A stretch of DNA of 38,687 bases from the NCBI RefSeq assembly GCF_003334385.1, contig NZ_QOWN01000041.1; one strand, 5' to 3'. The position numbers and the translations under genes were made by a program. The notes under the pieces were generated by a model. It was not told the origin of the DNA. It did no database searches and worked only from the letters and a program-made list of their open reading frames with translations. Each line of letters opens with the position of its first letter. Position 1 is the stretch's first letter. This DNA is from Escherichia coli (lineage in GTDB: Bacteria; Pseudomonadota; Gammaproteobacteria; Enterobacterales; Enterobacteriaceae). This document shows, piece after piece, positions 14,125 to 20,300 of this stretch.

Positions 14125-15135
14125 ATGAAGGCTGCAGTTGTTACGAAGGATCATCATGTTGACGTTACGTATAAAACACTGCGCTCACTGAAACATGGCG
14201 AAGCCCTGCTGAAAATGGAGTGTTGTGGTGTATGTCATACCGATCTTCATGTTAAGAATGGCGATTTTGGTGACAAAACCGGCGTAATTCTGGGCCATGA
14301 AGGCATCGGTGTGGTGGCAGAAGTGGGTCCAGGTGTCACCTCATTAAAACCAGGCGATCGTGCCAGCGTGGCGTGGTTCTACGAAGGATGCGGTCATTGC
14401 GAATACTGTAACAGTGGTAACGAAACGCTCTGCCGTTCAGTTAAAAATGCCGGATACAGCGTTGATGGCGGGATGGCGGAAGAGTGCATCGTGGTCGCCG
14501 ATTACGCGGTAAAAGTGCCAGATGGTCTGGACTCGGCGGCGGCCAGCAGCATTACCTGTGCGGGAGTCACCACCTACAAAGCCGTTAAGCTGTCAAAAAT
14601 TCGTCCAGGGCAGTGGATTGCTATCTACGGTCTTGGCGGTCTGGGTAACCTCGCCCTGCAATACGCGAAGAATGTCTTTAACGCCAAAGTGATCGCCATT
14701 GATGTCAATGATGAGCAGTTAAAACTGGCAACCGAAATGGGCGCAGATTTAGCGATTAACTCACACACCGAAGACGCCGCCAAAATTGTGCAGGAGAAAA
14801 CTGGTGGCGCTCACGCTGCGGTGGTAACAGCGGTAGCTAAAGCTGCGTTTAACTCGGCAGTTGATGCTGTCCGTGCAGGCGGTCGTGTTGTGGCTGTCGG
14901 TCTACCGCCGGAGTCTATGAGCCTGGATATCCCACGTCTTGTGCTGGATGGTATTGAAGTGGTCGGTTCGCTGGTCGGCACGCGCCAGGATTTAACTGAA
15001 GCCTTCCAGTTTGCCGCCGAAGGTAAAGTGGTGCCGAAAGTCGCCCTGCGTCCGTTAGCGGACATCAACACCATCTTTACTGAGATGGAAGAAGGCAAAA
15101 TCCGTGGCCGCATGGTGATTGATTTCCGTCACTAA
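14125..15135 (+). CDS. adhP: Zn-dependent alcohol dehydrogenase, propanol-preferring
   Basis: 336-aa product [19 protein letters not shown]...; Zn-ADH motifs GHEGIGVV and CGHCEYC; RBS aaaaggagg. Confidence 0.93.
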
Positions 15136-15144
15136 GAGGCCTTT

Positions 15145-15174
15145 GCTGCGACTGCCATGTTCGGGTCGCAGCAT
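15145..15174 (+). terminator. hairpin after adhP (no U-tract)
   Basis: tgctgcgac ... gtcgcagca inverted repeat. Confidence 0.3.
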
Positions 15175-15280
15175 CGCACACTCTCCAACATGAAATGGCT
15201 AAATGGATTATTGTTGCGTAGGAAGGAACAATAATGATAGTGTTCCCAGTGAAGGAACGCTACTGAGAGTAAAGACACTA

Positions 15281-15565
15281 ATGAAAATGGCCAATCATCC
15301 CCGCCCGGGGGACATTATTCAGGAATCACTGGACGAACTTAATGTCAGCCTGCGCGAGTTTGCCAGAGCAATGGAAATTGCTCCCTCAACGGCAAGCCGA
15401 TTGCTGACAGGAAAAGCAGCTTTGACGCCAGAAATGGCGATTAAACTTTCCGTGGTGATCGGCAGTTCGCCGCAAATGTGGCTGAATCTGCAAAACGCCT
15501 GGAGTCTGGCAGAGGCAGAAAAAACAGTGGATGTGTCGCGATTACGCCGTCTGGTTACGCAATAA
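15281..15565 (+). CDS. yddM: Xre/HigA-like helix-turn-helix DNA-binding protein
   Basis: 94-aa product [45 protein letters not shown]...; HTH motif evident; start chosen at the internal ATG by recollection of YddM length. Confidence 0.75.
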
Positions 15566-15617
15566 AAAAATGGCACTTTATAAAGCGCCATTTAGAACTG
15601 ATGACAAACGCAACATT

Positions 15618-15715
15618 GCCTGATGCGCTACGCTTATCAGGCCTACACGTTCACTGCAATCTATTGGATTTGAAGGGTTTTCATGCCGGATAAGGCGTTC
15701 ACGCCGCATCCGGCA
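15618..15715. repeat. BIME: two inverted REP elements
   Basis: gcctgatgcgctacgcttatcaggcctac and tgccggataaggcgttcacgccgcatccggca; canonical REP sequences. Confidence 0.85.
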
Positions 15716-15744
15716 TGAACAAAGCCTACGTTGTCTACAATATG

Positions 15745-15776
15745 AAAATGGCGCCTTTTACAGCGCCATTTTCAGC
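15745..15776. terminator. bidirectional terminator between yddM (+) and fdnI (-)
   Basis: aaaatggcgc / cttttaca / gcgccatttt; A/T runs on both sides. Confidence 0.55.
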
Positions 15777-15793
15777 TTAAAGTTCAAAAGAGA

Positions 15794-16447
15794 TTATATC
15801 CCTTCTTCACTCTCTTTTTTCGCTTCTGCCTTCTCGATTTCACGATACCAGCGCGGATGGTGTTTCTTCGCCCAGCGACGACTTACCTTCCCTTCGATCA
15901 TCCCTTTAATCGATCCTTTCACCCAAAATGCCATATACATATGGATCAGGATGGCGTGGATCAGGATGATACCCGCAGCCGCGTGGATCAGCAGGCTGTA
16001 GCGAACAACCTGCATCGGGAAGTACTGCGCAAAGTACGGACGCCAGATAATCACCCCGGTCACCAGCAGCACGAAAATCATGCTCATGATCGACCAGAAC
16101 ATCATCTTTTGCCCGGCGTTGTACTTACCGACATCCGCCACTTTATGCTCATTGCCTTTCAATACTTCGACAATGTTCAACAGCCACGGAATATCTTTCT
16201 TATCCGGGATGTTGTGATGCACAAAACGCACAAACATAAACATCAGTGCGACGAAAATCGCAATGCCGAAGAACGGGTGCAAAATGCGTCCCATCTGCGG
16301 CGTACCGAAGGTTTGCGTCAGCCATTGCAGCGTCGGGAAGAAGAACGAAATCCCGGACAGCGCCACCAGGAAGAAGCAAATCACCACGGTCCAGTGACAG
16401 GCGCGATCAATAAATTTGGTGCGCACAATCATTTTCGACTTACTCAT
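15794..16447 (-). CDS. fdnI: formate dehydrogenase-N gamma subunit (cytochrome b556)
   Basis: 217-aa membrane product [26 protein letters not shown]...; overlaps fdnH by 8 nt. Confidence 0.93.
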
Positions 16448-17336: not shown

Positions 17337-20300
17337 TTACGCCTGCTCGATGTTGACTAAGAACGCTTTATATTCCGGCGTTTGCGAGTTTGCATCACCG
17401 ACATTCGGCGTCAGAGTGTTAGCGATATAACCTTTACGCGCGACACCCTCAAAGCCCCAGTGGATTGGAATACCCACCGTTTCAACCTGCTGACCATTTA
17501 CATTCAGCGGTTTCAGACGACGCGTTACCACAGCCACCGCGCGGATAAAGCCACGCTTGCTGGAGACAGTGACACGATCGCCATTATTAATGCCTTTCGC
17601 CGCCGCCAGCGTTTCGCTGATTTCCACAAACTGTTCCGGCTGAGCAATTGCGTTGAGCAATGCGTGCTTGGTCCAGGTGTGGAAGTGCTCGGTCAGACGA
17701 TAGGTCGTACCCACATACGGGAACTGCTCTTTTTTACCCATCCGCAGCGCGTCTTGTTCATACAGACGAACAACCGGGTTAGACACCACGTTCGGATGCA
17801 GCGGGTTAGTGCCCAGCGGCGTTTCAATCGGCTCGTAGTGTTCCGGGAACGGACCTTCCGCCATTTTGTTGATGGCAAACAGGCGTCCCATCCCTTCCGG
17901 CTGCATGATAAACGGCCCGGTTGGCGTACCCGGTGCGGCATTGCCGAAGTCAGGAATATCGTTACCCGTCCACTTGCTGCCGTTCCACTGGATCAGCATC
18001 CGTTTCGGATCCCACGGTTTACCGTTGATATCCGCCGAAGCACGGTTGTACAGCACGCGACGGTTGAGCGGCCACGCCCAGGCCCATCCCAGCGTATTCC
18101 CCAGACCGGACGGGTCGGAGTTATCGCGGTTAGCCATCTGGTTGCCCTGCTCTGTCCAGCTACCGGTGTAGATCCAGCAAGAAGATGCGGTTGTACCGTC
18201 ATCACGCAGATGCGCAAAGCTACTCAGCAACTGACCTTTCTTCGCAATAAGCACGCCATTAGCGTCATAGAGATCTTCCAGCGCGTAGCCGTTGTTCTCT
18301 TTAGCCACTTCGTCAGATTGCGGTTCGTGCGGCTGCTTGTAGTTCCAGCTCATCTTCATCAGCGGTTCTACGCCTTTACCACCTTCGGACTGGTACAGCT
18401 CGCGCAGATGATGGTAGATACCCGCCAGAATTTCACCGTCGTTACGCGCTTCGCCCGGCGCGTCCTGACCTTTCCAGTGCCACTGCAACCAGCGACCGGA
18501 GTTAGCGATAGAACCATCTTCTTCAGCAAAGCAGGTCGAAGGCAGACGGAATACTTCAGTCTGAATAGACGCCGGATCGACATCGTTCGACTCACCGTGG
18601 TTCTGCCAGAAGGTAGAGGTTTCAGTCACCAGCGGATCGATAACCACCATGTACTTCAGCTTGCTCAGGCAGCTCACCACTTTGTTTTTGTCCGGGAAGG
18701 ACGCAACCGGGTTAAAGCCCTGGCAGAAATAACCGGTGACTTTGCCTTCATCCATCATGTTGAAATACTTGATGACGTCGTAGGTCTGGTCCCACTTCGG
18801 CAGCCAGTCATAGCCCCAGTTGTTCTCTTTCTGCGCGGCATCGCCATAGAAAGATTTCATCAGGCTAACGAAGAACTTCGGATAGTTGCTCCAGTAGTTC
18901 ACCTGATCAGCCAGCGTCGCTTTCGGCGTGTTCGCTTCCAGATACGACTGCAAATCAACCTGTTTTTCTGACGGCAGCGTCAGATAACCTGGCAGGCTGG
19001 TAGAGAGCAGGCCTAAGTCAGTCAAGCCCTGAATGTTGGAGTGACCACGCAATGCGTTCACGCCGCCACCGGCCATACCCATGTTACCGAGCAGCAACTG
19101 GATCATCGCCATAGTACGGATGTTCTGCGCACCCACAGTGTGCTGCGTCCAGCCCAGCGCGTACAGGAAGGTGGTTGTGCGATCCGGTGCGCTGGTGGAG
19201 GCCAGCACTTCACACACTTTCAGGAAGTCGGCTTTTGGCGTACCGCAGATGTTTTCAACGACGTCCGGCGTGTAGCGGGAAACGTGCTCTTTCAGCAGGT
19301 TCCACACACAGCGCGGATGAGTCAGTGTTTCATCGCGTTTCGCATAGCCGTTTTCATCGAACTGATAGTTCCAGGACGATTTATCGTATTGACGTTTTTC
19401 AGCGTCGTAGCCGCTGAACAGACCGTCTTCGAAAGCAAAATCATCACGCACCAGCAGGCTGGCGTTGGTGTAATGCTTAACGTATTCGGCGTTGATTTTG
19501 TTGTTTTCGATCAGGTAGCGCAAAACGCCAGACAGGAACGTAATGTCCGTACCGGAACGAATAGGCGCGTAAATATCCGCCACAGAAGCGGTACGCGTAA
19601 AACGGGGATCGACAACGATCAAGGTTGCGTCGTTGTTGTTTTTCGCTTCCATCGCCCAGCGGAAACCGACGGGATGCGCTTCAGCAGCGTTACCGCCCAT
19701 CACCATCACGACGTTAGCGTTTTTGATATCCACCCAGTGGTTGGTCATCGCACCGCGACCAAATGTTGGAGCAAGACTTGCTACCGTTGGTCCGTGTCAG
19801 ACGCGCGCCTGGTTGTCTACCGCCAGCATCCCGAGGGAGCGGGCAAATTTCTGGGTCAGCATCCCGGTTTCGTTGCTGGCACCGGAGGCACACAGCATAC
19901 CGGTAGAAAGCCAACGGTTTACCGTTACGCCCTGCTCGTTCTTTTCAATAAAGTTGGCGTCACGGTCAGCTTTCATCAGCTTCGCAATACGGGAGAATGC
20001 TTCTTCCCAGCTAATGCGCTGCCATTTGTCAGAACCTGGCGCACGATATTCCGGGTAGCGCAGACGGTTTTCACTGTTGACGTAATCCAGCAAACCGGCC
20101 CCTTTCGGGCACAGCGCACCACGGCTTACCGGATGATCCGGGTCACCTTCAATGTGATAAATCGCTTCTCTGGCGTTTTTTGCGCCATCACCCAGGCTAT
20201 ACATCAATAGCCCGCAACCTACGGAACAGTATGTGCAGGTGTTACGGATCTCTTTAGCGCGTAATAATTTGTAGTTTCGCGCCTGAGCCAGTGCTTGCTT

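Follow-up and report, generated by a model that had tools for sequence, protein, structure and literature searches.

Among the described systems close to the locus analyzed here is the HigB-HigA toxin-antitoxin (TA) pair of the Proteus vulgaris plasmid Rts1 (PDB 4MCT/4MCX; HigA-DNA, 6CHV/6CF1). Its toxin gene comes first, as in the ancestral yddM module described below, but the Rts1 higBA pair is plasmid-borne and complete, whereas the yddM copy is chromosomal and toxin-less. Two operators cover the -35 and -10 of Rts1 higBA, through which HigA represses without the toxin, and repression of Phig by HigA on its own exceeds that by the HigB-HigA complex about 1.6-fold (PMC12266136); at yddM, two predicted operators surround the putative promoter. 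The P. vulgaris HigB-HigA fails to bind the E. coli hig operators (PMC12266136). The HigB-HigA pair of E. coli K-12 (YgjN-YgjM) shares its name and its toxin-first order with the yddM-type pair. However, the helix-turn-helix (HTH) of the K-12 HigA is C-terminal, whereas that of the CFT073/YddM type is N-terminal (PMC6987408), and in practice the two represent different families.

Closer still is an antitoxin with the same 94 residues as YddM, HigA of E. coli CFT073 (PDB 2ICP/2ICT), which a review names as the YddM of that strain (PMC3968373); in AIEC NRG857c it goes by the name of HigA-2, of the ParE-2/HigA-2 pair (NRG857_07325/07320). Both strains keep the toxin gene directly upstream, in contrast to the DNA studied here. 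We took the NRG857c pair to be the yddM locus, given its matching gene sizes of 279 and 285 nt. A 2020 study comparing TA repertoires reported that, of the ParE-2/HigA-2 pair that NRG857c and CFT073 carry, K-12 and HS have the antitoxin gene only, and that they likewise keep only higA of the ParE-1/HigA-1 pair (PMC7232551). Judging from genome position, the latter gene in K-12 seems to be ybaQ, and YbaQ would then be a toxin-less orphan too. YbaQ (PDB 2EBY) likewise belongs to the TIGR02607-type HigA homologues, matching YddM at E=6e-9, and it bound DNA in the ChIP-exo study that also covered YddM (PMC6237786), but it differs in its locus, which lies outside our window, in its length of 113 aa and in its distant sequence. 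The antitoxin-only state of K-12 and the structure of the protein were thus already known (PMC7232551; 2ICP/2ICT). We add counts of each state over 5426 genomes, evidence from other genera on the ancestral state, the anatomy of two operators, a shared frameshift allele of the toxin and a caveat on selection.

The window, which is the whole analyzed stretch of 38,687 nucleotides (38.7 kb), contains the maeA-adhP-yddM-fdnIHG region of E. coli (Table 1). RefSeq names the genes adhP, yddM and fdnI, and an 801-nt query around yddM matched several E. coli chromosomes at 100% identity. The initial annotation had described a 94-aa protein with an HTH, and the open reading frame bears this out, with the quoted HTH string corresponding to residues 24-45. 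The range given for it, 15181-15565, is correct at its end but not at its start, since 15181 lies 100 nt 5' of the ATG and the range takes in the promoter and operator region. A 120-aa in-frame reading frame from the ATG at 15203 was rejected as the true yddM, because it would start upstream of the conserved operators and putative promoter and leaves the HMM match unchanged. The same annotation had seen no toxin-sized reading frame in the 145 nt (15136-15280) between adhP, which ends at 15135, and yddM, and we found there only mechanical ORFs of 25 aa on the plus strand (15157-15234) and 48 aa on the minus strand (15132-15278), neither of them toxin-related. It had also proposed a search of this spacer with toxin sequences; tblastn with the cognate toxin of other strains gave no match in the whole 38.7-kb window at E<=1e-3. 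Overall, neither the ORF list nor tblastn nor local alignment detected a toxin ORF or a toxin remnant in the window. As the toxin gene is absent from the window, yddM is an orphan antitoxin gene and not part of a complete HigBA TA system, in agreement with the earlier suggestion that it may be solitary.

Table 1. Features at the adhP-yddM-fdnI locus of the window
Feature	Position	Strand	Basis and remarks
adhP (alcohol dehydrogenase), upstream neighbour	14125..15135	+	ORF list; RefSeq gene calls for other strains with the identical region
Hairpin just 3' of the adhP stop, GCTGCGAC-N12-GTCGCAGC	15145..15172	+	Sequence, alignments
Operator-like O1, GTTGCgtaggaagGGAAC (GTTGC-N7-GGAAC)	15213..15229	+	Pattern search; predicted function; overlaps the putative -35
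Putative -35, TTGCGT	15214-15219	+	Conservation only
Putative -10, GATAGT, between O1 and O2	15236..15241	+	Conservation only
Operator-like O2, GTTCCcagtgaaGGAAC (GTTCC-N7-GGAAC, exact)	15242..15258	+	Pattern search, conservation
22-nt scar region	15259..15280	+	Alignments; toxin-bearing strains have a 279-nt higB-like gene and an RBS between O2 and the yddM ATG
yddM, HigA-family antitoxin/Xre HTH, 94 aa	15281..15565 incl. stop	+	TIGR02607, PF01381, PDB identity; ATG at 15281, TAA at 15563-15565
Terminator-like hairpin copy 1, AAAAAAATGGCAC-TTTATA-AAGCGCCATTT, directly after the yddM stop	15564..15593		
178-nt insertion polymorphism with two REP palindromes (15618-15646, 15685-15715)	15594..15771		Ends in hairpin copy 2 (15744-15773)
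fdnI (formate dehydrogenase-N gamma subunit), convergent downstream neighbour	15794..16447	-	ORF list, RefSeq annotation

The terminator scan made no call at the hairpin after adhP. In toxin-bearing strains, a T-run, CTGTTTTG, follows this hairpin (L001:1646-1690); the T-run is missing from the window (15145-15180), which reads ATCGCAC instead. With the T-run missing, transcription of adhP may run on into yddM more often in the toxin-less haplotype. An Rfam scan of the whole window returned the SECIS element of fdnG as its sole match and nothing near yddM. This element (SECIS_3; 19744-19802, minus strand, 84 bits) sits at the upstream end of a long minus-strand ORF (17337-19748), which we take to be fdnG; a SECIS is expected for the selenoprotein gene fdnG, and the ORF list breaks at this position because of the selenocysteine insertion element.

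The HTH had been described as being of the antitoxin type, and HMM classification placed YddM inside an antitoxin family. The protein scored 93.7 bits against the NCBIfam equivalog TIGR02607, "HigA family addiction module antitoxin" (cut-off 47.7), with residues 3-81 aligned to model positions 1-80 of 81, and it contains Pfam PF01381 HTH_3 (E=5e-9). It is 100% identical across all 94 residues to the PDB entries 2ICP/2ICT, "antitoxin HigA"; the next solved relatives are HigA of the P. vulgaris plasmid Rts1 (E=1e-18), GraA, Coxiella HigA and E. coli YbaQ. YddM thus combines a curated HigA score, an Xre/Cro-type HTH and, by identity to a solved structure, a known HigA fold. A further mark of a HigA, a HigB/RelE-type toxin gene adjoining it upstream, is lacking in the window, but 1329-1331 E. 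coli genomes and most of the other genera sampled have one at the orthologous locus.

This upstream gene was seen in strain BEN2908, whose longer adhP-yddM spacer accommodates a 279-nt gene (92 aa) with a RelE/ParE-family toxin annotation; the stop of this gene overlaps the yddM start (ATGA). The 92-aa product, as seen in L001, matches Pfam PF05015 HigB-like_toxin over residues 4-92 (E=4e-17), and its closest solved relative is the Rts1 HigB of P. vulgaris (4MCT_B), matched over the full length at E=1e-31. His 54 of the toxin aligned to a His of P. vulgaris HigB, as did the C-terminal YEDYH; H54A is the substituted P. vulgaris HigB variant used in PMC12266136. The lost partner therefore shows the Pfam match, the similarity to a characterized HigB and the conserved His-54 position that mark a HigB toxin.

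Among the 5426 complete E. coli genomes that we counted, toxin DNA was present in 1331 (near full length in 1329), with one copy each, while yddM was present in 5413 (about 99.7%) and was full length at >=95% identity in 5409. Toxin-bearing strains include UTI89, IHE3034, BEN2908 and ATCC 11775, which we take to belong to phylogroup B2; the toxin is absent from K-12, O157:H7 and HUSEC2011. A 61-nt exact sequence spanning a 1-nt deletion that frameshifts the toxin gene of strain R8 (probe L002:1875-1935; toxin gene in L002:1822-2099) occurred in 545 of the 5426 genomes, or ~41% of the toxin-bearing ones, and yddM was intact in the single such allele read (L002). An apparently intact toxin is thus carried by at most ~785 genomes (~14%), the shared frameshift by ~10% and no toxin gene at all by ~75%, the class to which the window allele belongs. 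The YddM protein is identical in strains with an apparently intact toxin, and this identity is the one indirect sign that YddM may neutralize its cognate toxin.

Several mobile elements and one stray record were encountered in these comparisons. In E. coli E6474 (L058:1-1987), the Tn3-family transposon TnAs1 truncates the 5' end of yddM, and two other strains (L056, L057; 693-885) carry a copy of IS200C just 3' of the gene, so that mobile elements use the yddM spot in three strains. A 214-nt contig labeled Clostridium sp. CMCC3677 (L035) encodes residues 1-36 of E. coli YddM at 100% identity, which suggests contamination.

The pair is not confined to E. coli. A scan with one genome per species yielded 41 loci encoding YddM relatives. 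By tblastn, the toxin gene immediately preceded the yddM homologue in E. albertii, in two other Escherichia lineages and in about 11 Citrobacter genomes, and the same order was found in Cedecea, Buttiauxella, Pluralibacter, Enterobacter, Chimaeribacter, Erwinia and more distant Proteobacteria. The question of whether any related locus carries an adjacent toxin is thus answered by 1329-1331 of the 5426 E. coli genomes and by almost every orthologous locus in E. albertii, Citrobacter, Cedecea, Buttiauxella, Pluralibacter, Enterobacter and Chimaeribacter. The position is shared as well: the TA pair stands beside fdnI in Escherichia, Citrobacter and some Enterobacter-like and Pluralibacter loci, and fdnI flanks an intact pair in Citrobacter and E. 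albertii. Since the pair occurs in this order and beside fdnI across other genera, these comparisons show the toxin-bearing state to be ancestral at the adhP-fdnI locus and the state of the window to be a loss. The initial annotation had offered a relic of a TA pair as one of two readings, and with a toxin-bearing ancestor at the same locus beside fdnI, the yddM of the window is such a relic. Our data support the view that yddM is the surviving antitoxin half of a chromosomal HigB-HigA pair whose toxin was deleted in the lineage of the window.

The yddM coding sequence differs from that of BEN2908 at only 9 of 285 positions, all synonymous. The upstream region is far more divergent and measures 185 nt before the toxin in the toxin-bearing haplotype and 145 nt before yddM in the window. 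The 22 nt between O2 and the yddM start are common to all 11 toxin-less alleles read, bar 1-2 point differences, which fits a single old deletion event behind these alleles. Local alignment of this segment (15259-15280) to the sequences on the 5' and 3' sides of the toxin gene turned up matches of only 5-6 nt, which shuffled sequence gave just as well (p=0.28 and 0.56, respectively). With neither flank significantly similar to it, precise breakpoints cannot be assigned. Two candidate junctions, an ATGAA microhomology joining the toxin start to the yddM start in a MAFFT alignment and a "CAC" breakpoint, were dropped; the former was unsupported by the flank alignment, and the latter was likewise unsupported. 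The part between the adhP hairpin and O1 aligned poorly to the toxin-bearing haplotype, and every toxin-bearing E. coli allele fetched had the same B2-type 185-nt upstream region, none of them combining the toxin with a K-12-type upstream region. The loss was either not a simple excision or was altered afterwards, and no sampled haplotype gives the toxin-less allele by one clean excision.

Toxin loss with retention of the antitoxin has recurred. Within E. coli, the losses comprise the deletion (~75%), the shared frameshift (~10%) and one different partial deletion, and there are parallels in Citrobacter and Chimaeribacter. The partial deletion, in E. coli O157:H7 TR01 (L004:1396-1556), still has the final 47 nt of the toxin gene and is unique among the 5426 genomes; other O157:H7 strains have the K-12-type allele. 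The TR01 allele is a mosaic, with B2-type sequence after the adhP hairpin, a K-12-type O1, a junction at AAT into the toxin end and O2 deleted. We considered it as a deletion intermediate and rejected this on account of its uniqueness; it represents an independent event or an assembly artefact. In the other genera (read at L008:2880-3000, L014:2723-3000 and L031:2950-3000), the toxin gene of Citrobacter sp. FP75 has lost an internal piece between two ATGGCGA repeats, that of C. portucalensis A60 is frameshifted, and Chimaeribacter californicus retains only the last ~13 toxin codons (…LNLEDYH). The antitoxin ORF is intact in all four (TR01, FP75, A60 and C. californicus).

Upstream of yddM, O1 and O2 are 17-bp quasi-palindromes of one design, spaced 29 nt apart on either side of the putative -10. 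O2 together with positions 15225-15229 also makes GGAACA-N10-TGTTCC, and three GGAAC/GTTCC pentamers fall within 34 nt, compared with a background of 1.7 per kb in the window. No other copy of the O2 design was found in the 38.7-kb window with up to one mismatch, apart from O1 itself (one mismatch). Followed by an RBS, the O2 motif GTTCC-N7-GGAAC recurs in the inspected homologues from Escherichia, Citrobacter, Cedecea, Buttiauxella and Chimaeribacter with a single exception, L024, whose left half-site is GCTCC. O1 is more variable; most homologues inspected from Escherichia, Citrobacter, Buttiauxella and Enterobacter keep its block GTTGCG...GGAAC, with variant half-sites in some. A consensus promoter scan of 15050-15850 gave nothing at threshold, and the predicted -35 and -10 therefore rest on conservation: the -10 position reads GATAGT in the window, TATACT in Chimaeribacter homologues and TATAAT in phage GER2, where a related operator arrangement with different half-sites surrounds the TATAAT box.

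An exact inversion of O1 was seen in the toxin-less strains 2013C-4538 and XH988 (L052:146-300 and L053:146-300; window 15211-15231), where GTTGCGTAGGAAGGAAC becomes GTTCCTTCCTACGCAAC inside a TTGTT...AACAA inverted repeat and both half-sites are kept. The yddM identity class (98.6%) of one of these strains made up 12 of 60 evenly spaced rows, and the flip may thus be common.

Downstream of yddM, the initial annotation had noted REP elements, and two REP-type palindromes are indeed present. They fit REP/BIME elements, which are imperfect palindromes of ~30-35 nt located between convergent genes and repeated in many copies per genome; an 801-nt query spanning them matched a median of 28 places per E. 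coli genome and was multi-copy in every genome. The 178-nt block that contains them is bounded by a 34-nt direct repeat of the terminator-like yddM/fdnI hairpin (spacing 178 nt; window 15560-15773), and alleles without the block (L002, L003, L047 and L052) have just one hairpin, common to yddM and the convergent fdnI. The presence or absence of the REP block is independent of the toxin gene, which implies that recombination has taken place within the short interval.

Overall, we propose that the locus began as a chromosomal type II module of the same kind as HigB-HigA of P. vulgaris Rts1, in which the toxin gene precedes the antitoxin gene, and that the 279-nt toxin gene was removed in the K-12-like E. 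coli lineage of the window. This loss would have placed yddM directly behind the promoter of the module itself, with O1 over the -35 and O2 just after the -10. By analogy with P. vulgaris HigA, which represses without its toxin, YddM dimers would continue to occupy O1 and O2 and to repress the promoter of their own gene, and YddM would be left without a toxin to neutralize in the window genome. We hold it probable that yddM encodes the HigA of an ancestral HigBA module that has lost its toxin and now stands behind its own promoter and two operators. Its current role is most likely that of a self-repressing DNA-binding dimer with nothing left to neutralize. In MG1655, ChIP-exo of YddM carrying a tag at its native chromosomal locus yielded binding peaks and a MEME motif, and the paper calls the motifs that it found palindromic (PMC6237786).

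Whether selection still maintains the orphan is a separate question. It is possible, although we do not favor it, that yddM is a decaying relic that has had no function since the toxin was lost and persists because it is short, harmless and self-repressed and is re-imported by recombination with toxin-bearing strains. Polymorphism within E. coli speaks for such decay to some extent. Changes private to the toxin-less alleles comprise one synonymous (position 129) and five nonsynonymous changes (D11G, G44R, E80A, L91Q and V92A), a 1:5 ratio that is near the neutral expectation of 1:3 and gives no sign of purifying selection since toxin loss. Nine of the 10 synonymous polymorphisms of the toxin-less alleles also segregate among the toxin-bearing alleles, and these are therefore ancestral or moved by recombination. 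Purifying selection had appeared from our first comparisons (7 and 9 differences, all synonymous), and we withdrew that conclusion because the sites are shared with toxin-bearing alleles. Segregating sites were synonymous and nonsynonymous in a ratio of 10:5 among toxin-less alleles compared with 33:2 among toxin-bearing ones (Fisher p=0.02), which suggests relaxed constraint on the toxin-less yddM; however, the alleles sampled were picked by identity steps and are enriched for rare variants, which counts against reading these numbers as decay. The one genome in which a Tn3-family transposon truncates yddM also fits decay. Against this stand the full-length gene at >=95% identity in 5409 of 5426 genomes, the lack of any stop codon or frameshift in the 11 toxin-less alleles read, and the same protein being encoded by seven of those 11 (window, L003, L052, L053, L056, L057 and L060) from six DNA haplotypes. 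Moreover, the nonsynonymous variants are rare or fall in the C-terminal tail, outside the HMM-matched region, the operators have been retained even through the exact inversion of O1, and YddM is made and binds DNA in MG1655 (PMC6237786).

A function in anti-addiction is another explanation for the persistence of the gene, and we judged it quite unlikely: orphan YddM would be kept to neutralize related HigB toxins arriving on plasmids or phages, thereby blocking post-segregational killing or abortive growth arrest. The YddM of toxin-less strains is the very protein that is paired with the toxin in B2 strains, and a plasmid search matched HigB-like toxins on 538 records, of which 99 came from Escherichia. 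However, 535 of these 538 records lie below 60% identity to the toxin, two lie at 90-99%, and the single one at 100% is a mis-assigned chromosome fragment. The E. coli phage GER2 encodes a HigB that shares 61% identity with the toxin and a HigA that shares 51% with YddM, with a similar operator layout, but a relative was found in this one E. coli phage record only. Immunity would also require cross-neutralization at 40-60% toxin identity, and the plasmid and phage relatives are weak support at best for it. The mis-assigned record at 100% identity is the 386-kb PLSDB "plasmid" of E. coli KE48 (L062), which carries the chromosomal maeA-adhP-toxin-yddM-fdn region.

Alternatively, YddM might have been recruited after toxin loss to control other chromosomal genes, possibly stress-related ones, which we consider unlikely. 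The ChIP-exo peaks and the motif obtained for YddM in MG1655, together with an RNA-seq deletion strain built in the same work (PMC6237786), would suit a domesticated regulator. Genetic-interaction profiles tie yddM to cspABE and oxyR (PMC9283627), and the Keio yddM deletion was hypersusceptible to epetraborole, with no complementation (PMC12457515); we counted both for this reading, but these screen phenotypes are unconfirmed. Apart from O1, the 38.7-kb window holds no further copy of the O2 design with one mismatch allowed, and YddM is identical in toxin-retaining strains, so no sequence change marks a new role.

Taking immunity against incoming HigB and small-regulator functions together, we regard it as doubtful that the orphan antitoxin is actively maintained across E. 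coli, with the toxin having been purged independently in several ways and the antitoxin retained together with its switch of two operators. The reading that we prefer is still that of a HigA left behind by its toxin, most likely repressing its own promoter. For annotation, this means that yddM should be described as an orphan HigA antitoxin rather than as an "uncharacterised regulator"; beyond this correction, the locus is of small significance. For the biology of E. coli, yddM is a marker of a TA module that is being lost from the species. The locus also offers a natural series, in which the toxin is intact, frameshifted or deleted and the antitoxin protein is identical in all but a minority of alleles, and this series can be used to ask whether orphan antitoxins are selected or slowly decaying.
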